A stretch of DNA of 64,000 nucleotides from Gemmatimonadota bacterium (GTDB lineage: Bacteria; Gemmatimonadota; Gemmatimonadetes; Palauibacterales; Palauibacteraceae): contig OZ242312.1 of the NCBI GenBank assembly GCA_965207805.1, forward strand, positions 2,233,204 through 2,297,203. Direction: 5' to 3'. Positions 1-43,291 of the stretch are shown in pieces. A program made the translations under genes and the position numbers. Position 1 is the stretch's first letter; the number at the start of each line of letters is the position of its first letter. The notes beneath the pieces are model-generated. The model saw nothing but the letters and a program-made list of their open reading frames with translations. It ran no database searches and was not told the DNA's origin.

Positions 1-1539
1 TCACTCCCCTCCCCCGGCCTCGACGGACACGGCTTCGACGTTCGCCGTCCGCGTTTCCACGTGCTCGATCAGCGCTTCCACCGACGCGCTCGTCCGGTTC
101 AGGAACGGTCCCGGCCAGACGCCGATGAGCAGGATCAGCGCGAGCAGCGGCGCGAGGATCAGGCGCTCCCGGCGGTTCACGTCGGTGAGCGCGCGGTTCT
201 CCTCGCGGTCGAGCCGGTTGAAGAGGACCCGCTGCACCATGGGCAGCATGTAGCAGGCCGCGAAGATCACGCCCGTCGTCGCGATGGCGGCGACCCACGG
301 GTGGGTCCTGAACGTCCCCACGAGGATCAGGAACTCGCCGACGAAGCCGTTCGTCCCCGGCAGCCCGACGGAGGACAGCGCGACGACGACGAGCGCGAAG
401 GCGAACACCGGCATCACCTTCGCGATGCCGCCGAAGTCCGCGATCTTCCGCGAGTGGCGCCGCTCATACAGCATCCCGATGAGGAGGAAGAGCGCCCCCG
501 TCGAAATCCCGTGGTTCACCATCTGGAGGATGCCGCCCTCGATCCCCTGGGTCGTGAGCCCGAACACGCCGAGCACGACGAAGCCGAGGTGCGCGACCGA
601 GGTATAGGCGATGAGCTTCTTCGCGTCCGGCTGGACCGCCGCCACCCAAGCCGCGTACAGGATCCCGATCAGCCCCAGCACGAGCATCGCGTTCACGACC
701 ATGGGATCCGTCGCCGCGGCCGGGAAGAAGGGGAGCCCGAAGCGCAGGAACCCGTACACGCCCATCTTGAGCAGCACTCCCGCCAGGATCACGGAGCCCG
801 CCGTCGGCGCCTCCACGTGCGCGTCCGGCAGCCAGGTGTGGAACGGGAAGAGCGGCACCTTGATGGCGAACGCGAGCGCGAACCCTCCGAAGAGCCAGAG
901 TTGCGCGCGCCGCGCGAGTTCGAGCGACACGAGATCCTCGTAGGCGAAGCTCCACGCCCCCGAGCCGTCCTGGAAGATCCAGGCGAGGGTCACGATCGCG
1001 ACCAGCATGAGGAGCGAGCCCACCGCCGTGTAGAGGAAGAACTTCACGGCGGAATAGATCCGGCGCTCCCCGCCCCAGACCCCGATGAGGAAGTACATCG
1101 GGATCAGCATGATCTCCCAGAACACGTAGAACAGGAAGAGATCGAGCGCGACGAAGACGCCGATCATCCCCGTCGTGAGGAAGAGGAGCATCGAGTAGAA
1201 GGCGCGCTCGCGGGTCCGGATGTGGGAGAAGGAGCCCGCCACCGCCAGCGGCATCGTGAACGTCGTGAGCAGGATCATGAGGATGGAGATCCCGTCCAGG
1301 CCCACCGCGTAGGAGATCCCCCACGCCTCGATCCACGGGATGGAGACGAGATTCTGGAACCCGGGCTCCGCCGTGTCGAAGGTCCAGAAGAGCGGCAGCG
1401 AGAGCGCGAACAGGACGAGCGTCGTCGCCAGGGCGACGGTCTTCGCGCGCGCCTCCGGCACCACGAGGCAGGCCGCGCCGCCCACAAGGGGGAGGACCAC
1501 GAGCGCGGTCAGGATCCAGTGCCCGTCGTAGAAGGCCAT
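1..1539 (-). CDS. nuoM: NADH-quinone oxidoreductase subunit M (complex I antiporter-like subunit)
   Basis: Minus-strand ORF. It begins [11 protein letters not shown] and carries the WLPDAHVEAPTAGSVILAGVLLKMG motif, with multiple TM helices. It lies immediately downstream of nuoL with an ATGA start/stop overlap at 1539. The stop codon is at bases 1-3, so the gene is complete. Confidence 0.85.
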   Translation of the reverse strand: MAFYDGHWILTALVVLPLVGGAACLVVPEARAKTVALATTLVLFALSLPLFWTFDTAEPGFQNLVSIPWIEAWGISYAVGLDGISILMILLTTFTMPLAVAGSFSHIRTRERAFYSMLLFLTTGMIGVFVALDLFLFYVFWEIMLIPMYFLIGVWGGERRIYSAVKFFLYTAVGSLLMLVAIVTLAWIFQDGSGAWSFAYEDLVSLELARRAQLWLFGGFALAFAIKVPLFPFHTWLPDAHVEAPTAGSVILAGVLLKMGVYGFLRFGLPFFPAAATDPMVVNAMLVLGLIGILYAAWVAAVQPDAKKLIAYTSVAHLGFVVLGVFGLTTQGIEGGILQMVNHGISTGALFLLIGMLYERRHSRKIADFGGIAKVMPVFAFALVVVALSSVGLPGTNGFVGEFLILVGTFRTHPWVAAIATTGVIFAACYMLPMVQRVLFNRLDREENRALTDVNRRERLILAPLLALILLIGVWPGPFLNRTSASVEALIEHVETRTANVEAVSVEAGGGE

Positions 1540-3557
1540 CACGAGAGCACCCCGAGGACGAGGAGGGCCCCAAGCATGAAGGCGACGAGGTAGGTCGTCA
1601 CGCGCCCCGTCTGGAGTTGGCCCCCGGCCCAGCCGAGGAGGCGAGCGGCGCGCCCCGCGCCGTTCACGGCGCCGTCGATGAGGCCCGCGTCCACGATCCG
1701 CCAGCACGCGCGCCACAGGGCGAGCGAGGGGCGGACGATCGCGCGGTCGTACAGTTCATCCACGTACCACTTGTCGTGGAGCACGCGGGCGAACCCGGTC
1801 GGCGCCACGGCCTGCGCCTCCGTCGGCACCGGCTTCGGCGACAGGACCCGGACGGTTCCGACGACGGCCGCGATCGCGATCGCCGCGGAGATCACCGCCC
1901 ACAGCGCCTCGCCGCCCCCGACGGGCGACCGGTATTCCGGGGCGAAGCCGTGCGCCTCCTTGACGGCGATCGCCGGCGCGAACACCGGCTCCAGCCAGTG
2001 GTGCAGCCACTCGACGGTCGGGAGCAGCGGCAGCGCCTCGGGGATATTCGCCCAGCCGCCCACGACCGAGAGGACCGCGAGCACCGCCAGCGGCGCCCAC
2101 ATGACGACGGGCACCTCGTGCAGCTTGCCTCCGGTGCGGTTCTCCCCGTGGAAGGTCATCACCATGAGCCGGGCCATGTACACGGCCGTGAGCAGCGCCG
2201 TGGCGAGCGCGACGCCCCACAGGATCGGGTATCCGTAGGCCCCCGAGTACCAGATGATCTCGTCCTTCGAGAAGAATCCGGCCAGCGGTGGCACGCCCGC
2301 GATCGCGAGGGTCGCGACCCACATGAAGACGAACGTGCGGGGCATGAACTTCCGGAGCCCGCCGTGGTTCCGCATGTCGTTCGGGTCGCCGTGGTGTGCG
2401 TCCCCGTGCCCGCCGTCCCCGTGCGCCCACGCGTGGTGCACCGCGTGGATCACGGCCCCCGCGCCCAGGAAGAGGAGCGCCTTGAAGAAGGCGTGCGTCA
2501 TCAGGTGGAAGACCCCGGCCGTGAACGCCCCCACCCCGACGGCGAGAAACATGTAGCCGAGCTGCGAGATCGTGGAGTACGCGAGCACCTTCTTGATGTC
2601 GTACTGCCGGATCGCGATCGAGGCCGCGAACAGCGCCGTCCCCGCCCCGATTGCCGCCACCACGCCCTGGGACACGGGCGAAAGCGCGAACAGGACGCTG
2701 GTGCGCGCGATGAGATAGACCCCCGCCGTCACCATCGTCGCCGCGTGAATGAGCGCCGAGACCGGCGTCGGACCCGCCATCGCGTCGGGAAGCCAGGTGT
2801 GGAGGGGAATCTGGGCCGACTTCCCCGTGCAGCCGAGGAAGAGGAGGAGCGTGATCCCGGTGACGAGCGCGCCGCCGTACGCGAGCGTCCCATCCGCCGC
2901 CGCGAGGACGGGAATGAAGTCCAGCGTCCCGAAGGCGACGAAAATCAGGAACATGGCGACGAGGAACCCCGCGTCGCCGATCCGGTTCATGATGAACGCC
3001 TTCTTCCCCGCGTTCGCGTAGTCCCGGTTCTCGTACCAGAAGCCGATGAGCAGGTACGAGCAGAGCCCCACGCCCTCCCAGCCCACGAACATCAGCGGGA
3101 AGCTGGCCCCGAGAACGAGGACGAGCATGAAGAAGACGAACAGGTTGAGATACGAGAAGTAGCGGGAATAGCCCGGATCGTCGCGCATGTAGCCGACGGA
3201 ATAGATGTGGATCAGGCTCCCGACCCCGGTGACGATCATGCACATCAGCATCGAGAGCTGGTCGAACTGGAGGTCGACCCCGATGCGGAGGTCGCCGGAC
3301 ACGATCCAGTTCCAGAGGCTGACGACTTCCGCGCCGTGCAGGTCCTCGCCATTCATCGCGATGAAGTTCACGAGGACGACGGCGAAGCTCCCGAGAAGCG
3401 CGGCGGGTCCCACGATCGTCGGGATCCGCTTGTCGTCGCGCCACAGGAATGCCCCCGCCCCGTTCACCGCCGCTCCGAGCAGCGGGAGGGCGAGGATGAG
3501 CCACGGGAGCACCGGCTGGAACCCGGCCGCCGCCTCCTGCGCGGTGAGGCTCACCAC
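1539..3557 (-). CDS. nuoL: NADH-quinone oxidoreductase subunit L (long antiporter-like subunit with C-terminal horizontal helix)
   Basis: 672 aa. Motifs: [64 protein letters not shown], and the C-terminal amphipathic region [17 protein letters not shown]. Confidence 0.9.
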
Positions 3558-3880
3558 TTCAGGAGCCGGAAGCGGTCGAGGTCCACGACTTCATAGTGCC
3601 GGAAGATCGCGATGATGATCGCGAGCCCCACGGCGGCCTCCGCCGCGGCCACGGCCATGACGAAGAAGACGAAGATCTGACCCTCGATCCCGTGCATGCG
3701 CGAGAAGGCGACAAGCGACAGGTTCGCGGCGGTCAGCATCAGCTCGATGCACATGAAGACGATGATCGCGTTGCGCCGCAGCAGGACCCCGATGACGCCG
3801 ATGGAGAACAGGATCGCGCTCACGAAGAGGGCGATGAGTCCGTTCAGGCCGAGCGCGCCCGCCATGCCCGCCTCGTTCAC
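3551..3880 (-). CDS. nuoK: NADH-quinone oxidoreductase subunit K
   Basis: About 100 aa with three TM helices (...[27 protein letters not shown]...). It sits between nuoJ and nuoL. The start could instead be the internal Met at 3865. Confidence 0.8.
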
Positions 3881-4425
3881 GTCCGCTCCCCCTCGCTCAC
3901 GCTCCGCTCCCTGCGGGCGAGCAGGATCGTGCCCACGATGGACACGAGCAGGAGGACGCCGGTGACCTCGAGCACGATCGTGTACTCTGTGAAGAGCGGC
4001 CGGGCCACGACGCCGACGACCCCCTGTTCGGCGGCCGCCTCGCGCAGCGCGCTGCCCGCAATCTCCACGACCGGCCGTGCCTCCGTCCTCCCGACGAAGA
4101 GCCGCGTGAGGACGCCGAGAAAGGCGATGGAGATCGAGCCGCCGATGAGCCCTCCCACGGGCCCCCGCAGGTCGCGCCAGTCCGCGTGCCCGAGGTTCAG
4201 GAGCATGAGGACGAAGAGGAAGAGGACCATGATGGCCCCGCCGTACAGGATCACGTTGATCGCCGCGATGTAGTGCGCATCCAGCATGAGGAACATGCCG
4301 GACGTGGCGAAGAACACGCCCACCAGGAAGATCACGGCGGACACGGGATTCCGGCGCGTGACCATGATCACCGCGCCCAGAATCGCGCTCGCCGCGAAGG
4401 CCTGGAAGAGAAAGTCCTGGATCAT
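3877..4425 (-). CDS. nuoJ: NADH-quinone oxidoreductase subunit J
   Basis: 182 aa hydrophobic protein ([39 protein letters not shown]...) positioned between nuoI and nuoK. Confidence 0.85.
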
Positions 4426-4444
4426 TGCGGCGCGGGGTCGTGGA

Positions 4445-4942
4445 TCATTGCGACGCCGGGTCCTGCGGATCCCACAACGCCGTCACGTCGTGCTCCTGCT
4501 CGACGAGCCGCTCGAGGTCGTACACCCAGCGCTCGCGCGAGTACTCCGCGTTCTCGTAGTGCACGCCGAGGTGGATCGCCTCGACCGGGCACACCTCCTG
4601 GCAGTAACCGCAGAAGATGCAGCGGAACTCGTCGATCTCGTAGATCGCCGCGTAGCGCTCGCCGCTCTCGTCCTCCGCCGGCACGAGCTTGATGCAGTTC
4701 ACGGGGCACACGGTCGGACACAGGCCGCACGCGACGCACTTGGCCCGTCCGTCCTCGTGCACCTCCATGCGGTGCGTGCCGCGCGTCCGGGGCGCCAGTT
4801 CCCACTTCTCGTCCGGGTACTGCTGCGTCTTCTTGTTCGGGCTCAGGAGGTGCCGCATGGTGATCGACATCCCCTTCGCCGCCGCCCGCACGTACGAACT
4901 CTCGGCCCGCGGCCGCTCCACGACCTTCACATCTCCAGGCAT
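4445..4942 (-). CDS. nuoI: NADH-quinone oxidoreductase subunit I (2x[4Fe-4S] ferredoxin)
   Basis: Two CxxCxxCxxxCP motifs: CVACGLCPTVCP and CIFCGYCQEVCP. Confidence 0.9.
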   Translation of the reverse strand: MPGDVKVVERPRAESSYVRAAAKGMSITMRHLLSPNKKTQQYPDEKWELAPRTRGTHRMEVHEDGRAKCVACGLCPTVCPVNCIKLVPAEDESGERYAAIYEIDEFRCIFCGYCQEVCPVEAIHLGVHYENAEYSRERWVYDLERLVEQEHDVTALWDPQDPASQ

Positions 4943-4943
4943 C

Positions 4944-6200
4944 CTACCCTCCCTGGCCCGCGGCGCCGCCGCCGGCCGACTTCGCCCCCTTCGCCCCGCC
5001 GCGGATCAGCGTCCCCCGGTCCATGGCGAAGAAGAGCACCCCCGCGAGCCCAAGATTCACGAGGAAGAGAACGAACGCGTACCAGCCGCCGAGCGGGATC
5101 CCGACCGCCTCGATTCCGAGGATGACGAAGGCGATGACGAGGATGTAGACCGTCACCGCTTCCAGCATGAACTTCCAACCCAGATCCATGAGCTGGTCGT
5201 AGCGGAAGCGCGGCAGCGTCCACCGAATCCAGACGAAGACGAGCACGAGCAGCGACGTCTTCACGCCGAAGGCGCCGAGCGTGAGCAGCGTCTTCCACCA
5301 CGTCGGCTCCCCGATCACCGTCCCATCGGAGAGGACGCGGATATTGTCCCCCTGCCAGAACGGGATGTCCCACCCGCCGAGGAAGAAAACGGTGACGAGC
5401 GCGGCGACCGTGATCACGTGCGCAAACTCGCCGATCATGAACATCGAGAACTTCATCGCCGAATACTCGGTGTGGTATCCGGTGATGAGTTCGGCCTCCG
5501 CCTCGGGCATGTCGAAAGGAAGACGGTTCGTCTCCGCGAGTCCCGAAACGAAGAAGAAGAAGAGACCGACGAGGAGCGGGAACATGAACCACGTCGCGTA
5601 CGTCGCCGGCCCCGCCGTGAACGTCTGCTGCATGGAGACGATCTCGGGGGCGCGCACGTCTCCCGTGAGGAGGATGAGCGGGACGAGGCTGAGCGCGAGC
5701 GCGACCTCGTAGCTCACCATCTGCGCAGAGCCGCGCAGGCCGCCGAGCAGCGAGTACTTCGACCCGGAGGCCCAGCCGCCCATGGCGACCCCGTACACGC
5801 CGATCGAACCGATCGCGAGCACGTAGAGGAAACCGATCGGCACGTCCGCCACGATCATCTCCACGAGCCCCCACTGCGTGGGCAGGGGGGAGGCGAAGGG
5901 GATCACGGCGAAGAGGATCGTGGCCGGCAGAATCGCGAGGACGGGCGCGAGGAGGAAGAAGGGCCGGATCGCCTGCTCCGGCATCGTCTCTTCCTTGAGG
6001 AGGTTCTTGAGCCCGTCGGCGATGACCTGAAGGAGTCCCCACGGGCCGACGCGGTTCGGGCCGCTCCGGTCCTGCATGAAGCCGCACACCTTGCGCTCGA
6101 AGATCGTGGCGAACATGACCGCGAGCATGAGCACCGAGAAGAAGAGGACGACCTTCCCCACGGTGGCGAGGGCGAAGGCGCCGCCGGTGACGGGGCTCAC
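4944..6200 (-). CDS. nuoH: NADH-quinone oxidoreductase subunit H
   Basis: NuoH/ND1-like membrane protein (...SGPNRVGPWGLLQVIADGLKNLLKE...YEVALALSLV...). Start chosen at a GTG that overlaps the nuoG stop (GTGA). An internal Met start is an alternative. Confidence 0.8.
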   Translation of the reverse strand: MSPVTGGAFALATVGKVVLFFSVLMLAVMFATIFERKVCGFMQDRSGPNRVGPWGLLQVIADGLKNLLKEETMPEQAIRPFFLLAPVLAILPATILFAVIPFASPLPTQWGLVEMIVADVPIGFLYVLAIGSIGVYGVAMGGWASGSKYSLLGGLRGSAQMVSYEVALALSLVPLILLTGDVRAPEIVSMQQTFTAGPATYATWFMFPLLVGLFFFFVSGLAETNRLPFDMPEAEAELITGYHTEYSAMKFSMFMIGEFAHVITVAALVTVFFLGGWDIPFWQGDNIRVLSDGTVIGEPTWWKTLLTLGAFGVKTSLLVLVFVWIRWTLPRFRYDQLMDLGWKFMLEAVTVYILVIAFVILGIEAVGIPLGGWYAFVLFLVNLGLAGVLFFAMDRGTLIRGGAKGAKSAGGGAAGQGG

Positions 6201-7825
6201 GCGTCGGCCTCCGCGGAACCGGCGACGCCGGCGGCTTCCGCGGCCGCGCCGGCGGCCAGGGCGCCCTTGAGCCCGATCCCGTCCCACGTGAGGCCCGCGA
6301 AGGCCGGGGCCTCCGCCGCCATCCGCTCGAACGCGCCACGCACGTCGTTGACGGCCTCGCCGTCTTCCAGGCGGGCGAGCACCCGGCTGAGCACCATCCA
6401 GCCCGGGCGGGCCAGGCCCGGCGGCCTCAGCGCCTGGTGGAAGCGCTGCACGCGGCCCTCGAAGTTCGTGAACGTGCCGTCCATCTCCGCGAAGGTCGCG
6501 ATCGGCAGCACCGCATCCGCGTTGCGCGCCGCGCCGGGCAGCCGCGTGCCGATGTAGAGGAAGAAGTCGGCCGAGGCGCCGAAGTCGTCGGCCGCGCCCT
6601 CGAGTTCGTCATCGAGCACGACGAGCGCTCCGCCGCCGGCTCCGTTGCCCGCCGCGCCATTGGGGAGCGCCGCCACGCGCCGGCCGCCGAAGAATCCCGC
6701 CCCCGCGACGTTCGCGGCGCGGTCCGCGCGCAGCTTGAGGGTCGGCACGGTAGGCAGCGCCGCGGTATCTCCCTGCGGGACCCGGAACGCAGCGCCCGCG
6801 ACGCCGAGCCGGTCGAGGAGCCGCCGGACGTAGAACAGGTTCTCGTTCGAGGCGTCCGGCGACACGACCGCGCTCCCGCCGGGCGCGCCGAGCGCGTCGA
6901 TCTTCTCCGCCACCCAGTCGAGCGCCGTGGCCCAGTCGACCGGCCGGAGTTGTTCGCCGTCGCGGATGAGGGGAACCTCGGCGCGCACGCCGCGGTTCGT
7001 CATCACGAGGTGCTTGCGGCCGTAGTCGCACATCCACCACGAGTTCACGGCCGCGTTGTGGCGCGGCTTCACGCGCACGATCTGGTTCTCCTTCGTGTCG
7101 ATCGTGACGTTGCAGCCGGTGGGACACCCGGGACACACGCTCGCCGCCGCGTCCATGTCCCACGCGCGCGCCTTGAACACGAAGTCCTCGTGCACGAGCG
7201 CGCCGACGGGGCACACGTCGACGATGTTCCCCTGGAACGGGTTGTCGAGTTCGCGCCCCGGGAAGGTGTCGATGTAGGCCTTGTCCCCGCGCTGCGCGAC
7301 GATGAGCGAATCATCCTCCGCGACGTCGCGCATGAAGCGCACGCAGCGCGTGCAGATGACGCAGCGGTCCGCGAAGTAGAGGATGTCGTCGGAGATGCGG
7401 TCCCGCCCCATGATCCGCTTGGGCTCGTCGACCCGGCTCTCGAGCTGGTTCGTGACGTAGGCGTAGTCCTGGAGCATGCACTGCCCCGCCGCGTCGCAGA
7501 TCGGGCAGTCGAGCGGGTGGTTGACGAGGAGGAACTCGATGACCGACTGGCGGGCCGTGCGCGCCGTGTCGCTCGCCGTGTTCACGACCATGTCGTCGGC
7601 CGCCTGCAGCGTGCAGGAGGGCTCGAGCTTGGGCCGTCCCTCGACCTCCACGAGACACATGCGGCACTGCGCCGGCCGCGTGGGGATGCCCGGGTGGTAG
7701 CAGTAACGGGGCACCACGACGCCCACGTGCTCCGCCGCCTCGATGACGCGCGTGCCGCTCGGGACCGTGACCTCGACCCCGTCGATCGTGAGCGTGACCG
7801 TCGCCTTCGCGCCGTTCTCAGCCAT
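6197..7825 (-). CDS. nuoG: NADH-quinone oxidoreductase subunit G (short, 542-aa form; 2Fe-2S and 4Fe-4S clusters)
   Basis: N-terminal 2Fe-2S ferredoxin fold (RYCYHPGIPTRPAQCRMCLVEV) plus cysteine clusters HPLDCPICDAAGQC and CVICTRCVRF. It lacks most of the C-terminal molybdopterin-like extension seen in E. coli NuoG. Confidence 0.85.
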   Translation of the reverse strand: MAENGAKATVTLTIDGVEVTVPSGTRVIEAAEHVGVVVPRYCYHPGIPTRPAQCRMCLVEVEGRPKLEPSCTLQAADDMVVNTASDTARTARQSVIEFLLVNHPLDCPICDAAGQCMLQDYAYVTNQLESRVDEPKRIMGRDRISDDILYFADRCVICTRCVRFMRDVAEDDSLIVAQRGDKAYIDTFPGRELDNPFQGNIVDVCPVGALVHEDFVFKARAWDMDAAASVCPGCPTGCNVTIDTKENQIVRVKPRHNAAVNSWWMCDYGRKHLVMTNRGVRAEVPLIRDGEQLRPVDWATALDWVAEKIDALGAPGGSAVVSPDASNENLFYVRRLLDRLGVAGAAFRVPQGDTAALPTVPTLKLRADRAANVAGAGFFGGRRVAALPNGAAGNGAGGGALVVLDDELEGAADDFGASADFFLYIGTRLPGAARNADAVLPIATFAEMDGTFTNFEGRVQRFHQALRPPGLARPGWMVLSRVLARLEDGEAVNDVRGAFERMAAEAPAFAGLTWDGIGLKGALAAGAAAEAAGVAGSAEADA

Positions 7826-7828
7826 GCC

Positions 7829-9118
7829 TCACCCCGCCGCGACCAGAGAAGGCTTCATCAGCGCCTCGTAATCGGCGCGGAACTTGTCGAGCGACGACTC
7901 GAGCGGGAACACGACGCTGTCCGCCAGCACGCAGATCGTGCGCCCCGTCATCTGCTCGCACAGCTCGTACAGCGTGTCGATGTCGCTCGGGCGGCCGTCC
8001 CCAGCCTCGATGCGCTGCAGGATGCGGACGACCCATGAGGTGCCCTCGCGGCACTGCACGCACTGGCCGCACGACTCGTGCGCGTAGAACTGCGCGATCC
8101 GGCGCATGGCGGCGACGATGTCCGTGTCCTCGTCCATCACGATCGGTGAGGCGGTGCCGAGCGCGCTGCCCGCCTCCGCCAGCCCCTCGTACGTCGTCGC
8201 GCAGTCGAGTTCGTCTCCGCTCAGGAACGCCGTGGAGGAGCCACCAGGGATCACGGCCTTCACCGGCTTGCCCGAGGGCGTGCCGCCGCAGGCGTCGAAG
8301 ATGATGTCGCTCAGTGGCAGCCCGAGCGCGAACTCGTAGTTGCCGGGGCGCACGAGGTGCCCGGAGCAACTCCACAGCTTCGTGCCGGGAGACTCGTCGC
8401 TCCCCCACTGCCGGTACCAGTCCGCGCCGTTCTCGAGGATCATGGGGACCGCGGCAAGCGTCTCAACGTTGTTCACCGTCGTGGGCATCCCGAACGCCCC
8501 GGCCTGCGCCGGGAAGGGCGGCTTCGCCCAGGGTTCCGCGCGGTTGCCCATGAGCGAGTTCATGAGGCCGGTCTCCTCGCCGGCGATGTAGGCCCCGGCC
8601 CCCGCGTGGATCGTCACGTCGCACGACCACGACGAACCCAGGATCCCGTCCCCGGCGAGACCGGCCTCGTACGCCTCGACGACGGCGGCGTTCAGAACCT
8701 GCGTCTCCTCGAAGAACTCGCCCCGCACGTAGATGTAGGCGTGTTCCGCCCCGATGGCGCGTGATGCGATGAGGCAGCCCTCGATGAGGAGGTGCGGCGT
8801 CCAGCGGATGACCTCGCGGTCCTTGAAGGCGCCCGGCTCGGACTCGTCCGCGTTGCAGCACAGGTAGTGCGGCTTGCCGTCGTCCTTCGGCATGAAGCTC
8901 CACTTGAGGCCCGTCGGGAAGCCCGCGCCGCCGCGTCCGCGGAGACCGGAGGCCTTCACGACCTCGGTGATCTCGGCGGGCGACATGTCGAGGGACCGCC
9001 GGAGCGCCTCGTAGCCACCCCCGGCGCGCCAGCCGTCGAGCGTGCGCGCTTCGGCCTCGCCCTGGTGCCGCGACAGCCGGGTCGTGACCTCGAGTTCGCT
9101 CCGGTGCGGAAAGCTCAT
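7829..9118 (-). CDS. nuoF: NADH-quinone oxidoreductase subunit F (NADH/FMN-binding, 4Fe-4S)
   Basis: Motifs GLRGRGGAGFPTG, GAGAYICGEETGLMNSL-like GAGAYIAGEETGLMNSLMG, and ESCGQCVQCREG. The ATG overlaps the nuoE stop (ATGA). Confidence 0.9.
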   Translation of the reverse strand: MSFPHRSELEVTTRLSRHQGEAEARTLDGWRAGGGYEALRRSLDMSPAEITEVVKASGLRGRGGAGFPTGLKWSFMPKDDGKPHYLCCNADESEPGAFKDREVIRWTPHLLIEGCLIASRAIGAEHAYIYVRGEFFEETQVLNAAVVEAYEAGLAGDGILGSSWSCDVTIHAGAGAYIAGEETGLMNSLMGNRAEPWAKPPFPAQAGAFGMPTTVNNVETLAAVPMILENGADWYRQWGSDESPGTKLWSCSGHLVRPGNYEFALGLPLSDIIFDACGGTPSGKPVKAVIPGGSSTAFLSGDELDCATTYEGLAEAGSALGTASPIVMDEDTDIVAAMRRIAQFYAHESCGQCVQCREGTSWVVRILQRIEAGDGRPSDIDTLYELCEQMTGRTICVLADSVVFPLESSLDKFRADYEALMKPSLVAAG

Positions 9119-9723
9119 GCGCCGCCTCCCGCATCCGACCCGCCGCGCCCGGCACCGTCGCCCGCGCCGTTTCGCGCCCCGCGCAGGCCGGTCACGATTT
9201 CGGGCACGCGCTCCGGCGTCACGTCCTCGAGGTAGCGCTCGTTGACCTGCACGACAGTGGCGAAGCCGCAGGCGCCGAGACATTCCGCCTCGATCACCGT
9301 GAACTCCCCGTCCTCCGAGATCTCCCCCTCGCGGGTCCCCGTCTCGGCGAGGAAGCGGTGCAGCACCTCTTCGGCCCGGTTCAGGTGGCAGGAGATGTTC
9401 GTGCACACCTGGACGAAGTGACGTCCGACCGGGTGCTTGTTGTACATCGTGTAGAAGGTCGCGATCGAGTGGACGTAGGCCGGCGTCAGTTCCAGCGCCT
9501 CGGCGACCTCGACCATGTCCGCGGGCTCGATCCACCCCTTCACCGACTGCACGAAGCCGAGCATGGGAAGGAGCGCCGCCTGCTTCGTCGGATAGCGGGA
9601 GAGGGCCGCCTCCAGCCGGTGCTTCCCCTCCTCCGTCTCGAAGATGGGACCGTCGAAGGTCTCCCTCGCCGTCAACTGGAAGGGCTGCGCGCCCACGACC
9701 GCGGGGTGGATGCGCCGGCTCAC
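9115..9723 (-). CDS. nuoE: NADH-quinone oxidoreductase subunit E (thioredoxin-like 2Fe-2S)
   Basis: Region ...VQVCTNISCHLNRAEEVL...EAECLGACGFATVVQVN. Putative GTG start overlaps the nuoCD stop. The C-terminus has a Gly-rich tail. Confidence 0.8.
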   Translation of the reverse strand: MSRRIHPAVVGAQPFQLTARETFDGPIFETEEGKHRLEAALSRYPTKQAALLPMLGFVQSVKGWIEPADMVEVAEALELTPAYVHSIATFYTMYNKHPVGRHFVQVCTNISCHLNRAEEVLHRFLAETGTREGEISEDGEFTVIEAECLGACGFATVVQVNERYLEDVTPERVPEIVTGLRGARNGAGDGAGRGGSDAGGGA

Positions 9724-11582
9724 CGGTCGATCTCCCCGAGCACGACGTCGAGCGAGGCGTTGATCGCGACGACGTCCGCGACGAGTTCGCCCCGCACGAG
9801 TTCGGGGAGCGAGGCGATGTTGATGAACGACGGGCCGCGGAAACGGCAGCGGACGGGCTTCGTGCCGCCGTCGGAGATGATCCCGAATCCCAGCTCGCCC
9901 TTCGAGCTTTCGATGGAGTACCACGTCTCGCCGGCCGGCACGCGGACGCCCTCCATCACGAGCTTGAAGTGCGAGATCATGGTGTCGATCGACCCCATCG
10001 CCTCGCCCTTCGGAGGCAGGACGATCCGGTAGTCGTCGATGTTGATCGGGCCTCCCGGGAGCCCGTCCAGCGCCTGCTCGATGATGCGGACGCTCTGCCG
10101 CATCTCCTCCACCCGCACGAGATAGCGGTCGTAGACGTCCCCCTCGGTCCCCACGGGCACGTCGAAGTCGTACTCCTCGTAGCCGAGGTAGGGGCGCGCC
10201 TTGCGCACGTCGTAGGCCACGCCGCTCGCGCGGAGGGCGGGGCCGGTGACGCCGTAGCTCAGCGCCTTGTCCGCGGAGAGCACGCCGATGTCCATCGTGC
10301 GGCCCTGCCAGATCGCGTTGCGCGACAGCAGCCGCTCGACCTCGTCCAGCGTCTCCGGGAAGGTGGACGTGAAGTCGCGCGCCGCCGCCGTCCAGCCCAC
10401 GGGCAGATCCGCCATCATCCCGCCGACCCGCGTGACGGAGGTCGTGATCCGGCCCCCCGTGTACGCCTCGTGCAGGTTGTAGATCCGCTCGCGCTCCTGG
10501 AACGTGTAGAGGAAGACGGAGAAGGCGCCGATGTCGATCGCCGTCGTCCCCAGCCACAGGAGGTGGCCGAGGATGCGGTTCAGCTCGCCGAGGATGACGC
10601 GGACGACGCGGCAGCGCTCCGTGATCTCGACGTCGAGGAGCGCTTCGACCGCCCCCGCGAAGCCGATGTTGTAGAGCATCGGCGCGAGGTAGTCCATGCG
10701 GTCCGTGTAGGGCACGCACTGGTTCCACTCGCGGTATTCGCACGTCTTCTCGAAGCCCGTGTGCAGATACCCGATATGGGGGGAGCAGCGCACGATGCGC
10801 TCCCCGTCGAGCTGGAGCACGAGCCGGAGGACGCCGTGGGTGGCCGGGTGCTGCGGTCCCATGTTGATGAGGATGGGCTCGCCCTCAAGCGCGTCCTCGG
10901 GCTGCTCGTCCGGGTGTACGTCGCGGATGCCGCCCTCCGGCGGGGCCTCAACCTCTCCATCCTCCGTGACGGCGTAGCCCGCCATCTCCAACTCCTCGAC
11001 GGCGTACATGTCGACGAGGTCGCGGGAGAGCGCGCGGCTCACCTGCCGGGAGCGGCTGAAGCGTCCCCGGAGCGGGAAGTCCTTCCGGAGCGGGAACCCC
11101 TCCTCGTAGTTCTCCGGCATGAGGATGCGGCGCAGGTCCGGATGGCCGCGGAAGCTCACGCCGTACATGTCCCACACCTCGCGCTCGAGCCAGTCGGCGG
11201 CGAGCCACAGGTCCGTGACGCTGTCCAGCTCGAGGTCGTCCATCGGGACCTCGCACGCGACCCGGAGCTGGCGGCCGTGGGCCATGGACCAGAGCTGGTA
11301 CCAGACCTGGATCGGGGCGCCGATGCCGGCGTGCGCTCCCATGACGTCCGCGAGCAGGTCGTACGCCTGGTCGGGCGTGTCGCGGAGGAAGCGGAGCGCC
11401 TCGGCGATGAGGCCGGGGTCGATCCACACGACGGGATAGCCGAGCGCGTCCGTCTCCACGCGGCGGACGCCGTCTCCGAAGCGCTCGCGCAGGGCGAGGA
11501 CCGAGGGATGGCTCGCCGCTTCCCCGTCGAGGGGCGCGACCCGCACCATGCGCGGAGGCGCGGTCGTCGTCGCGGTCGTCAA
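9720..11582 (-). CDS. nuoCD: NADH-quinone oxidoreductase fused subunit C/D
   Basis: 620 aa single ORF. It has a NuoC-like N-terminal third and a NuoD-like 49-kDa C-terminal part ending ...VVLGEIDR. Confidence 0.85.
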   Translation of the reverse strand: MTTATTTAPPRMVRVAPLDGEAASHPSVLALRERFGDGVRRVETDALGYPVVWIDPGLIAEALRFLRDTPDQAYDLLADVMGAHAGIGAPIQVWYQLWSMAHGRQLRVACEVPMDDLELDSVTDLWLAADWLEREVWDMYGVSFRGHPDLRRILMPENYEEGFPLRKDFPLRGRFSRSRQVSRALSRDLVDMYAVEELEMAGYAVTEDGEVEAPPEGGIRDVHPDEQPEDALEGEPILINMGPQHPATHGVLRLVLQLDGERIVRCSPHIGYLHTGFEKTCEYREWNQCVPYTDRMDYLAPMLYNIGFAGAVEALLDVEITERCRVVRVILGELNRILGHLLWLGTTAIDIGAFSVFLYTFQERERIYNLHEAYTGGRITTSVTRVGGMMADLPVGWTAAARDFTSTFPETLDEVERLLSRNAIWQGRTMDIGVLSADKALSYGVTGPALRASGVAYDVRKARPYLGYEEYDFDVPVGTEGDVYDRYLVRVEEMRQSVRIIEQALDGLPGGPINIDDYRIVLPPKGEAMGSIDTMISHFKLVMEGVRVPAGETWYSIESSKGELGFGIISDGGTKPVRCRFRGPSFINIASLPELVRGELVADVVAINASLDVVLGEIDR

Positions 11583-11598
11583 CGGCGGATCGCCCCGG

Positions 11599-12306
11599 TC
11601 AATCCCGGTGTTCCAGGCGGCGTTCGCGCCGGTCGCGGGAGCGGGTCAGCGCGGAGGTCGGGCCGAGCCCGCTCATGCGGTTCTGGTTCGTCGAGTTGCC
11701 GAAGGGCTGGGCGACGAGTTCGATCGTCTCCGGGGGCAGGTTCGGACGTCCGACCGCCTCCGGATCCTCGTCCCGCGACCGGGGGTCGGCCAGCGACTCT
11801 CCCTTGATCTTCTCCTGGATCATGAGGAGTCCGTAGATGAGGCCTTCCGGCCGCGGCGGGCAGCCGGGGACGTAGACGTCGACGGGGACGATGGTGTCGA
11901 TGCCCTGGACGATCGTGTAGTTGTCGAACATCCCGCCGGAACTCGCGCACGCGCCCATGGACACGCACCACTTGGGCTGCGGCATCTGGTCCCAGACGCG
12001 GCGCAGGACGGGGGCGAGCTTGTAGGTCACGCGGCCGGCGACGATCATCAGGTCCGCCTGGCGGGGGCTGAAGGACATGCGCTCCATCCCGAAGCGGCCG
12101 ATGTCGTACTTGCTCGCGGCCGAGGCCATCATCTCGATCGCGCAGCAGGCGGTCCCGAACGGCATGGGCCACAGCGAGTTGCGGCGCGCCCAGTTGACGA
12201 CGTAGTCGAGCTTCGTCGTCATCCAGTTGTGCGGGATGCCGGTGTCGAGCTCGCCGGGGTTGGCGTCCGGATGCGCGCCAGGCGGCAGCGTATCGAGGGT
12301 TCTCAT
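11599..12306 (-). CDS. nuoB: NADH-quinone oxidoreductase subunit B (4Fe-4S N2 cluster) with C-terminal extension
   Basis: Motifs [24 protein letters not shown] and GCPPRPE. An upstream SD GGGGAG is present. There are about 70 extra C-terminal residues compared with typical NuoB. Confidence 0.85.
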
Positions 12307-12331: not shown

Positions 12332-12688
12332 TCAGTCCCATTCGAGGGCCCCCTTCTTCCACGCGTACACGAGTCCGACGCCGAGCACGGTGAGGAACGC
12401 CGTGATCTCCATGAACCCGACCATCCCCAGTTCCCGGAAGATCGCGGCCCACGGAATGAGGAAGAGCGTCTCGATGTCGAGGACGATGAAGAGCATCGCC
12501 ACGATGTAGAAATTGACCGAGAAACGCTCCCGCGTCGTCCCGAGCGGGGGAATCCCCGACTCGTACGGGCTCGCCTTCACCGGGGTGGGTCGTCGGGAGC
12601 CCACGAAATGCGACACGCCCATCATCGCGGCCGCGTTCAGCACGCCGACCAACGCGAGGATCAGGATGCCGAGATATGGGTCGAGCAA
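12332..12688 (-). CDS. nuoA: NADH-quinone oxidoreductase subunit A
   Basis: Three-TM small subunit (...[36 protein letters not shown]...). Start assigned to TTG at 12688, preceded by a strong GAGGAG SD at about 9 nt. The upstream ATG at 12772 would add 28 non-conserved residues. Confidence 0.75.
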
Positions 12689-12713
12689 GGGGGTTCGCTC
12701 CTCTCGTGCGAGC

Positions 12714-12731
12714 TTGTGAATTTCTTCACTT
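12714..12731 (-). promoter_or_regulatory. Putative Rex (redox-sensing repressor) operator in nuo promoter region
   Basis: TTGTGAA-TTTC-TTCACTT matches the Rex consensus TTGTGAA-N4-TTCACAA at 14/16 positions. It lies between a candidate -10 box and the nuoA SD. Coordinates are approximate. Confidence 0.45.
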
Positions 12732-12804
12732 TCCCGCGCCGCGAAGGTATCGCGGAGGGGTGGGAGCGGCAAGCGGTATTTGGCCTCGGAAGCCGAGGGA
12801 GCGA

Positions 12805-13683
12805 GTGAGTCGAAAGCGGCCTGTGGTGCGGAATGTGGCGATCGGCGAAGGCACGGTACGCGTGACGGTTCTGGGCGCGGGGCGCCCCGTCCTCTTCCTG
12901 CACGGGATCAGCGCCCACGGCCGCGCCTGGCGGCCCGTCGCCGAGCGCTTCGCCGAGGCACATCCGGGGTGGGAATGTTGGCTTCCCGACCTGCCGGGCC
13001 GCGGCGCATCGGACGTACGGACGGAACTCTCCTACACCCTCGACGACGAGGTGCGCCGGCTTCGTGAGCTTGTGCGGGCGCTGGCGCCGGACGGCCCGCT
13101 GCCGCAACTCGTCGCCGGGCACTCGCAGGGCGCGGCGATCGCGCTCGCCCTCGCGGCGGCGGAACCGGGCATCGGCGGCCTGCTGCTCTCGAATCCGGTC
13201 ACGCCGGAGATCCGGAGCCCAGCCGTTCTGGGGTTGCTGCGGTCGTCCGCGGTGCGGAGGGCGGTCGGAAGCCTCCTGGCGCCGCTTCACGCGCCGCTGG
13301 GACACCTGGTGCTTCGGCGGGCGTGCGGTCCCGACTTCCGCGCCCCCGCGGAGCTGGTCGCCGCCTATGCGCGGCCGTGGTCGAGCCCGGCGCGCGCCCG
13401 CACGCTCCTGCGCATCCTGGCCGACTGGCGCCCTTCGGAACTGGAGGACCGCATGCCCCGGCGCCCGGTCGCCGCCCGCGTCGTGACCGGCGCCCACGAC
13501 CCGAGGATCCCCGTTGAAGCCGCAAGGCGCCTCGCCTCCCGCCTCGACTGCGACTTCACCGTGTCCCCCGACGGCGGCCACGTCCTGACCGAACAACACC
13601 CCCGGCTCCTGGCCCGCCTCCTGGGCGAAATGGCTGGCCGGTTGGCCCCGCCCCCGGCAGCTTCTAGAGCTTCGGGGGCGTGA
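12805..13683 (+). CDS. alpha/beta-fold hydrolase
   Basis: HG oxyanion motif ([11 protein letters not shown]), nucleophile elbow GHSQGAAIA, and a conserved His near the C-terminus ([10 protein letters not shown]). It is divergent from nuoA. GTG start is uncertain; other GTGs lie within 30 nt. Confidence 0.7.
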
Positions 13684-41596: not shown

Positions 41597-43291
41597 TCAC
41601 ATCCGCTTGTAGGCCGGGCCGCTGCCGCCCTCACGCGGCGTCCAGCGCGGACCGAGGACGTCCGTCGCCTTGCAGTCGATGCAGTTCGGCGCGTTCACCA
41701 CCAGGCGATCGCCGTCGCGCTCGTACACGCCCGCCGGACAGAGGCTCGCGTACAGTTCCGCCATCTCCGGCGATACTGCCGTGCCCGCTTCGCCGCCCGC
41801 CAGAAGGTGCGAGGGGATATCGTCCCGGGTCGCGTTCCCGGAGCGGAAGACCGCGTCGACCTTGGCGACGGCGTGCTCGGAGTCATACGCGGAGTCGAGC
41901 CCCAAACGCTTGTGACGAGGGCCCGCCGCGTCGGGCTCGCTCGGGATCCGGGCGCCGGGAAACGTTCCGCCCGTGGCCTGCATGAGCCCCGCCCTGAGGC
42001 CTCCCGAGAAGAAGCCGGACTTGAAGGCGAGCCGCTGGTTCCGGTTGCGGTACAGCGGGTCCTGGATGAGGCTCTCCCGCAGCGCCGCGTCGTAGGACGC
42101 GAGCCGAGCCGCCGGGACGGCGCCCTCCGCCCCGTCCGCCTGGGCGGGCCCGGCCGACAGGGCCCGGCCGATGGCGTCGGCCGCGAGGACGCCCGACCGC
42201 ATCGCGTAGTGGATGCCCTTGAGTGACGCGACGTCGACGAGTCCCGCGGCATCTCCCGCGATGAGCAGCCCATCCCCGCTCAGCCGGTCCGGGATGGCAT
42301 GGTAGCCGCCCTCCGGAATCGTCTTCGCTCCCCACTCCACGAGTTCGCCCCCGTCCAGGATCTCGCGCACGAACGGGTGCTGCTTGAAGCGCTGCAGCAG
42401 CGCATGCACGTCGAGGTCGACGTAGGGCGCGTCGAGGCCCACGACGAGACCCAGCGACACGAGATTCCCGCCCATGGGATAGATGAAGCTGCCGCCGAAC
42501 GCATCCCGCGGAAGCGGCCAGCCCATGGTATGCGTGACCGCGTCGGGCGGATGCGCGACCTCCCACAGTTCCTTGACGCCGAGCGCGAAGATCTGCGGGT
42601 TCGCCGAACCGACGCCCTCCAGCTCGAGCCAGGCCTGGCTCAGGGGTCCGCGGGTCCCTTCGGCGAGCACGGTGACCCGCGCGGAGAGGTCCGTGGCCGG
42701 CATGTAGCCGCCCTCCGGATTCCCCTCGCGGTCGAGACCGGCGGGGGTCGTGCGGACGCCGGTGACCTGCCCTTCGCGCATGAGGAGGGCATCGGCCGGG
42801 AACCCCGTGAACACGTTCACCCCCAGCCCTTCCGCCTGCGCCCCCAGCCAGCGCACGATCTCGCAGATCGAGGCCACGTGATAGCCGTGGTTCCGCATCG
42901 AGGGCGGGGTCGGGAGCCGGACCCTTCCGCGCTCCGTGAGGAGCAGCACCCGGTCGCCGGCTACGCGGCCACGGAGGGGAAGCTCCGCCTCGTCGAGGTC
43001 CGGGAAGAGCGTACGAAAAGCCTGCGGGTTCACGACCGCCCCGGAGAGGCAGTGCTCCCCGAGTTCACCCGACTTCTCGAGAACGCCGATCTCGAGGTCG
43101 ACGAGCGGCCCTCCTTCCGCGCGATCGCGCGCCGCGAGTTGCGCCAGCCGGATCGCTCCCGCGAGCCCGGCCGGACCTCCGCCCACGAACAGGACATCGA
43201 GCGGCACTGCCTCCGGGTCGGGATCCCCTTCGATGATGAAGCGCGCCCGGGGCAGCGGTAGCTGCGCGGACGCGGGAATCAGCGATTTCAC
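41597..43291 (-). CDS. electron-transfer flavoprotein:ubiquinone oxidoreductase (ETF-QO)
   Basis: FAD motif VLFVGGGPAGLAGA and C-terminal 4Fe-4S ferredoxin-like CPAGVY...NCIDCKA. Confidence 0.85.
   Translation of the reverse strand: MKSLIPASAQLPLPRARFIIEGDPDPEAVPLDVLFVGGGPAGLAGAIRLAQLAARDRAEGGPLVDLEIGVLEKSGELGEHCLSGAVVNPQAFRTLFPDLDEAELPLRGRVAGDRVLLLTERGRVRLPTPPSMRNHGYHVASICEIVRWLGAQAEGLGVNVFTGFPADALLMREGQVTGVRTTPAGLDREGNPEGGYMPATDLSARVTVLAEGTRGPLSQAWLELEGVGSANPQIFALGVKELWEVAHPPDAVTHTMGWPLPRDAFGGSFIYPMGGNLVSLGLVVGLDAPYVDLDVHALLQRFKQHPFVREILDGGELVEWGAKTIPEGGYHAIPDRLSGDGLLIAGDAAGLVDVASLKGIHYAMRSGVLAADAIGRALSAGPAQADGAEGAVPAARLASYDAALRESLIQDPLYRNRNQRLAFKSGFFSGGLRAGLMQATGGTFPGARIPSEPDAAGPRHKRLGLDSAYDSEHAVAKVDAVFRSGNATRDDIPSHLLAGGEAGTAVSPEMAELYASLCPAGVYERDGDRLVVNAPNCIDCKATDVLGPRWTPREGGSGPAYKRM

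Follow-up and report, generated by a model that had tools for sequence, protein, structure and literature searches.

A predicted Rex-type operator downstream of the complex I promoter and matching boxes at rex promoters in Gemmatimonadota

The window, i.e. the whole 64,000-nucleotide stretch of DNA analysed here, has a G+C content of 69.4%, equal to that of the sponge Palauibacter MAGs, and opens with an operon for respiratory complex I, which is encoded on the minus strand and runs off the start of the window. The first gene of this operon, nuoA (12332..12688, minus strand), begins with a TTG start codon at position 12688 and encodes a protein of 118 amino acids, which was assigned by Pfam (Oxidored_q4) and has identical 118-aa counterparts on public contigs. 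The rest of the operon (1..12306, minus strand) was delineated from open reading frames, GC3, and, on identical public contigs, the Pfam assignments of nuoB, nuoCD, and nuoE. It includes nuoB (11599-12306), a fused nuoCD (9720-11582), and nuoE, as well as nuoF, G, H, I, J, K, L, and M, which are named from gene order only. The NuoC-NuoD fusion comprises 620 aa in the window and is called with 609 to 628 aa on public contigs with identical NuoA; because the called lengths vary despite this identity, they suggest a variable region within the fusion protein. Divergently to nuoA, a gene with a GTG start at 12805 (12805..13683, plus strand) encodes an alpha/beta-hydrolase of 292 aa with matches to Abhydrolase_6 and Abhydrolase_1. 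Positions 12689-12804 constitute the exact 116-nt spacer between the two start codons, and the gene boundaries agree with public gene calls on contigs encoding identical NuoA.

Within this spacer, an 18-bp inverted repeat is located at 12714..12731, the place at which a palindrome had been reported in an earlier note on this DNA. The repeat, for which no strand was assigned, reads TTGTGAATTTCTTCACTT on the plus strand and AAGTGAAGAAATTCACAA, i.e. AAGTGAA-GAAA-TTCACAA, on the nuo (minus) strand. We predict it to be a Rex-type operator based on its sequence, chance statistics, the footprint upstream of nuoA genes, and the boxes found in rex promoters, as detailed below. On the nuo strand, the spacer displays the order TTGCCG, 17 nt, TACCTT, 12 nt, the 18-mer, GAGGAG, 9 nt, and the TTG start. 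TTGCCG (12767..12772, minus strand) and TACCTT (12744..12749, minus strand), the latter of the TAnnWT type, represent the predicted -35 and -10 elements of the nuo promoter, as judged from their sequence and conserved arrangement, and GAGGAG (12698..12703, minus strand) is the Shine-Dalgarno sequence, which is conserved in the nuoA loci L003-L010. While the proposed promoter was not called in a strict sigma-70 scan, all elements described in the earlier note are present. In contrast, the operator does not overlap the -10 element as had been stated there, since it begins 12 nt downstream of it. The box is thus located between the predicted -10 element and the ribosome-binding site, 26-43 nt upstream of the nuoA start, and its other end is separated by 74 nt from the hydrolase start. 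Transcription of nuo presumably starts upstream of the box, which would correspond to about +5 to +22 of the transcript.

Of the 14 positions that are specified in the Rex consensus TTGTGAA-N4-TTCACAA, the window site matches 12, so that the 14/16 match given previously was a miscount. Both mismatches fall on the last two bases of the plus strand, and the core of the operator, GTGAA-N4-TTCAC (12716-12729, no strand assigned), is matched at 10 of 10 positions. No other site in the 64-kb window has two or fewer mismatches to the consensus, with 0.01 such sites expected, and only one of 100 shuffles of the window contained any. The exact core occurs twice in the window compared to 0.02 expected copies. 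The second copy, GTGAACACGTTCAC at 42807-42820, was rejected as an operator, because it lies in frame within a gene for an ETF-ubiquinone oxidoreductase (41597-43291, minus strand; assigned by Pfam), where GTG AAC GTG TTC AC corresponds to the preferred codons for V-N-V-F-T, indicating that this copy is a by-product of coding. Comparable in-frame copies of the core were seen at L049:6520 and L052:6609.

We scanned a genome collection with NuoA and oriented the resulting 80 loci on nuoA for comparison. The closest NuoA proteins (93-98% identity) belong to Candidatus Palauibacter MAGs of the Gemmatimonadota, and an identical NuoA is present in sponge and Tara Pacific coral metagenomes. The window is accordingly assigned to a sponge-associated, Candidatus Palauibacter-like member of the Gemmatimonadota. 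Among the 49 Gemmatimonadota loci having upstream sequence, 44 carry the exact core GTGAA-N4-TTCAC 25-45 nt before the nuoA start. These loci come from Palauibacter, Longimicrobiales, Gemmatimonadales, and Gemmatimonadaceae, their NuoA identities reach down to about 47%, and the core before nuoA is nearly the sole such site in each 20-kb locus. The core was absent before nuoA in about 29 loci of Chloroflexota, Nitrospirota, Acidobacteriota, Myxococcota, and Planctomycetota. In addition, a Rex-like box of a different location, CTGGTGAACTTTTTCACAAGG, was seen in three Vicinamibacterales (Acidobacteriota) loci, where it lies between -35 and -10 elements just after nuoN (L077:19765-19778, L081:19806-19819, L074:19341-19354). 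The gene that follows encodes a small membrane protein, which resembles atpZ/atpI and would mark the start of an atp operon, and Rex may control ATP synthase in this order.

For a closer view of the promoters, 45 distinct upstream regions including the window were picked by an exact match to the core and aligned. The invariance of the core among them is by construction, and the informative figure is therefore the 44 of 49 loci. Outside of the -35, the -10, and the box, all sequence in the 45 regions diverges, and 43 of them share the arrangement TTGnnn, 17/18 nt, TAnnWT, 8-19 nt (mode 12-14), box, and ribosome-binding site. All Palauibacter loci have TTGCCG as their -35 element; the other Gemmatimonadota have TTGACA or TTGACC there. 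The nuoA loci of P. denitrificans and P. poriticola (L005, L006) have a 5' UTR identical to that of the window. In Gemmatimonadaceae loci, the gene upstream is dcd instead of the hydrolase, and the position of the box relative to nuoA is unchanged. In the five loci without the exact core (L025, L032, L033, L035, and L054), the box about 40 nt upstream of nuoA is degenerate or missing: degenerate versions read GTGACCAATATCAC, GTGAGGAATTTCAC, and GTCAAACTTTCCAC, L054 retains one intact half-site, and L032 has no box. The promoter itself is kept in all five despite the degenerate or absent box, and in these lineages, control of complex I by Rex could have been relaxed or lost.

The promoters of nuoA (L003-L076) and of rex (L096, L099, L100, and L101) in Gemmatimonadota combine a classical -35 with a -10 element of the form TAnn(A/T)T, as in TACCTT, TAACTT, TAATTT, and TAGGTT; a -10 element TATAAT was not seen in any of them. 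This form is reminiscent of the TAnnTTTG -7 element of Bacteroidetes.

tblastn searches with T-Rex, B. subtilis Rex, and E. coli CRP and FNR as queries revealed neither rex nor a gene of the CRP/FNR family within the window or L001-L082, and the regulator of nuo is thus not encoded locally; for rex in the window, this agrees with the earlier note. Palauibacterales have been described as facultative aerobes with nitrate, nitrite, or N2O respiration (PMC10469786), and K01926 (rex) is present in 44 of 48 of their MAGs, including every near-complete MAG of the genus Palauibacter, among them P. denitrificans and P. poriticola (Table S3, PMC10469786). The MAGs without K01926 are three with a completeness of 50-60% and one Kutchimonas MAG (Table S3, PMC10469786). 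Based on this KEGG KO table for congeneric MAGs, the source genome of the window probably carries rex as well.

An exhaustive representative search yielded 150 diverse Rex proteins, and a profile was built from twelve high-G+C members of the 'STVRRLSLYLR' type. Among the proteins returned by a search with this profile were some that carry the NCBI names Rex [Longimicrobiaceae bacterium] and Rex [Gemmatimonadaceae bacterium]. Together with the related P0222, these score 250-275 bits compared to cut-offs of 126-226 for the NCBIfam Rex equivalogs. A Rex orthologue, which the earlier note had made a test of its proposal, is thus present in the order and genus according to the K01926 table and in the phylum according to the equivalog scores. 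The rex genes reside in a conserved block (L095, L096, L097, L099, and L100) that contains genes for a STAS protein, an anti-sigma-type HATPase kinase, and a GAF/SpoIIE phosphatase, followed by ksgA, rex, an ADI-family (amidinotransferase-like) gene, and RNase T, and the synteny ksgA-rex-ADI was observed in three lineages. This conserved neighbourhood indicates vertical inheritance of rex within the phylum. The STAS, HATPase, and GAF/SpoIIE genes beside rex amount to a partner-switching module. A tblastn search with Rex against plasmids revealed no Gemmatimonadota Rex there. P0399 (L102) was left out, as it is found in a different context (dnaA-gyrA-rex) and has no taxon assigned.

A sponge-associated clade of Rex proteins with 64% identity, retrieved from 4-Mb contigs of the sequencing project that also produced Palauibacter in a search with T-Rex (query verified against PDB 1XCB), was also considered as Gemmatimonadota and rejected, since it belongs to Trueperaceae/Deinococcales. 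In these sponge Trueperaceae/Deinococcales (L083 and L084; about 4 Mb), Rex is 63-64% identical to Thermus Rex, and rex is directly preceded by a gene for a SPOR-domain protein, with a stop/start overlap in L083 and adjacent in L084. No GTGA-N6-TCAC site was found in L083.

Each of the named rex loci of Longimicrobiaceae and Gemmatimonadaceae has a single core site, which is a canonical, perfect box in the rex promoter. The rex-promoter boxes read TTGTGAAACAATTCACAA in L096, TTGTGAAGAAATTCACAA in L099, TTGTGAATGATTTCACAA in L100, where the box overlaps the -10 element TAGGTT, and ATGTGAACGATTTCACAA in L101; in L099, the last 16 of 18 bases are identical to the window box. A metagenome scan with a profile of the Gemmatimonadota-type Rex yielded 80 more loci, 79 of which show synteny with ksgA and/or ADI. 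A box lies within 130 nt upstream of rex in 79/79 testable genes, and it is a perfect TTGTGAA-N4-TTCACAA in 71, with one mismatch in five and two mismatches in three. The three boxes with two mismatches read AAGTGAAAAGATTCACAA, and their half-sites are the same two as in the window site. No other core sites were detected in the rex loci (465 kb). Because all 79 rex genes carry a box, autoregulation of Rex via a canonical operator appears to be universal in the Gemmatimonadota rex clade. Judged by its sequence, the nuoA box is of the same motif family as the rex boxes. The central four bases of the boxes are A/T-rich, matching the A/T-rich centre of the S. aureus Rex consensus TTGTGAAWWWWTTCACAA (quoted in PMC5355995). 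At position 2, T is missing from all 45 nuoA boxes, 36 of which have A and nine C; at position 17, 29 of them have G. The prediction of the earlier note that the motif would recur upstream of redox genes was thus borne out by the core before nuoA in 44 of 49 loci and the canonical box at 79 of 79 rex genes. Beyond these two targets, scanning the nuo loci (about 1.5 Mb) and the rex loci (465 kb) revealed no further recurrent intergenic sites in Gemmatimonadota that could point to additional regulon members.

The palindrome could be read in other ways than as a Rex site. Since GTGA-N6-TCAC is common to the Rex and CRP consensus sequences, and TGTGA-N6-TCACA is matched by the site at 9 of 10 positions, it might be bound by a regulator of the CRP/FNR family or another dimeric protein, and the fact that the nuoA boxes of every genome deviate at position 2 from the Rex consensus would be compatible with this. 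However, we consider such a regulator improbable. The E. coli CRP consensus has GTGAT/ATCAC, whereas 44 of 49 loci have A as the fifth base of each half-site (GTGAA/TTCAC), a signature of Rex, and the same type of box precedes the rex genes themselves. In the window, the CRP/FNR pattern is not enriched (5 matches compared to 8.8 expected), and, as described above, homologues of either protein are missing from the window and from L001-L082. Among the 48 Palauibacterales MAGs, K10914 (CRP) was assigned in 10, none of them in the genus Palauibacter, and K01420 (FNR) in one, likewise outside this genus, compared to 44 with rex, although KO assignment could miss divergent members.

Because the box is located downstream of the -10 element and is predicted to be transcribed, it could alternatively act in the 5' UTR as an RNA hairpin with a 5-bp stem (GUGAA/UUCAC) and a 4-nt loop that affects mRNA stability or translation or serves as a target of an RNA-binding protein. 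Immediately before the ribosome-binding site, the minimum-free-energy structure indeed contains a small hairpin, but shuffled sequences fold with a stability that is not significantly lower (z = -1.8), and an Rfam search gave no match over the box. Both arms are conserved in sequence across very divergent genomes without compensatory changes, and the variants found in L025 (GTGAC/ATCAC) and L033 (GTCAA/TCCAC) break the pairing. These variants, together with the unremarkable fold, favour a double-stranded DNA site for a dimeric protein. In rex promoters, the palindrome overlaps the -10 element (e.g., TAGGTTGTGAA in L100) and therefore cannot act there as a 5'-UTR hairpin. Overall, a function of the box as RNA seems very unlikely to us. 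That the palindrome arose by chance in an AT-richer intergenic spacer and lacks a function would be in line with the statistics at a relaxed threshold, at which three mismatches are tolerated: here, 0.24 sites are expected in the window, and 22 of 100 shuffles give at least one match. With at most two mismatches, however, the expectation drops to the 0.01 sites given above, and chance is ruled out for practical purposes, because 44 of 49 genomes have retained the box at this position despite completely diverged flanks.

We therefore regard it as highly probable that the palindrome before nuo is an operator of the redox-sensing repressor Rex, predicted to be encoded elsewhere in the genome. The proposal of the earlier note that a Rex-type redox operator is located at the complex I genes is in this way supported in silico by the footprint upstream of nuoA, the presence of Rex in the lineage, and the boxes in rex promoters. 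Binding of Rex, its sensitivity to NADH, and the sign of regulation at nuo are inferred for this operator, and the mechanism would be as follows. A Rex dimer, composed of winged-helix (PF06971) and Rossmann (PF02629) domains, would bind the 18-bp site at roughly +5 to +22 and, when NADH is low relative to NAD+, block promoter escape or early elongation of nuo. Upon accumulation of NADH, NADH-bound Rex would leave the DNA and its release would allow transcription of the 13-14-gene complex I operon, and more complex I would in turn provide a greater capacity to re-oxidise NADH. Rex would also shut off its own gene via a canonical and stronger box, which overlaps the promoter of that gene.

The nuoA boxes deviate systematically from the consensus. 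Because position 2 is never T and position 17 is mostly G, their affinity for Rex may be low; alternatively, another factor may contribute. The consistent deviation of the nuoA boxes compared to the perfect rex boxes in 71 of 79 loci suggests two affinity grades, and the difference between the two types of boxes is conserved across orders. A further-reaching reading, which we put forward as tentative and ourselves find rather doubtful, is that Rex control of complex I and rex autoregulation are ancestral to the whole Gemmatimonadota, with two deliberately different operator grades. If this were true, nuo would be derepressed at a lower NADH/NAD+ ratio than rex. The redox response would then be graded and hard-wired, in a phylum that is largely aerobic or facultative and for which Rex had not been described.

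Soils, sediments, sponges, and corals harbour abundant Gemmatimonadota, hardly any of which have been cultured. Our literature search found no paper linking Rex to Gemmatimonadota and no described transcriptional regulon for the phylum. The predicted operators would thus extend the Rex redox switch to Gemmatimonadota, where it has not been described before, while the mechanism itself is already known. They offer a concrete and testable regulatory link that is conserved across the phylum, with Rex predicted to act on complex I and on rex, and provide a handle for reading metatranscriptomes of sponge symbionts under fluctuating oxygen. In addition, about 125 natural operator variants constitute a set for studying the tuning of Rex affinity. 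The findings are hence useful for annotating an under-studied phylum and leave the view of how Rex works unchanged.

Among known systems, the operator (ROP) of nuoA1-N1 in Streptomyces avermitilis and S. coelicolor likewise acts on the complex I operon, and it is an 18-bp inverted repeat of the same TTGTGAA-N4-TTCACAA family. In S. avermitilis, Rex represses nuoA1-N1, atpI, cydA1, and rex-hem and binds to their operators, and NADH abolishes binding (PMC5355995). Likewise, the nuo operator of Streptomyces, TTGTGACCTGCTTCACAT, is sub-consensus (PMC5355995), and S. avermitilis Rex also binds to half-sites TCGTGAA and to right halves TTCACGA (PMC5355995). Rex is autoregulated through its own box in Streptomyces, as we predict for Gemmatimonadota. 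The two systems differ in the position of the operator, which extends from -42 to -16 and covers the -35 element at Streptomyces nuoA1, whereas the Gemmatimonadota site lies downstream of the -10 element at roughly +5 to +22. In this respect, the latter is more similar to the cydA1 operator of S. avermitilis (-3 to +25), which demonstrates that an operator downstream of the start can be functional (PMC5355995). The S. avermitilis operators are experimentally established; the Gemmatimonadota site belongs to another phylum and is a prediction from sequence.

The generalised Rex regulons, which were reconstructed by comparative genomics, share with our observations the same consensus and the same logic, with NADH-oxidising or respiratory genes as targets in addition to autoregulation, and were derived by the same footprinting of orthologous promoters that was applied here. 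The survey by Ravcheev and colleagues reportedly covered Firmicutes, Thermotogales, Actinobacteria, Chloroflexi, Deinococcus-Thermus, and Proteobacteria. The generalised Rex consensus, in the form in which it is quoted from that work, is TTGTGAANNNNTTCACAA (Ravcheev et al. 2012, J Bacteriol 194:1145, as quoted in PMC5317091). At the protein level, the Rex of Thermus (T-Rex, PDB 1XCB / 3IKT) has the same domain architecture as Gemmatimonadota Rex, PF06971 plus PF02629, and the Gemmatimonadota proteins are 43-46% identical to the Thermus sp. Rex P0014, which is itself 89% identical to T-Rex. Thermus Rex nonetheless represents a different clade, as the Gemmatimonadota proteins group with Rex proteins of the 'STVRRLSLYLR' type.
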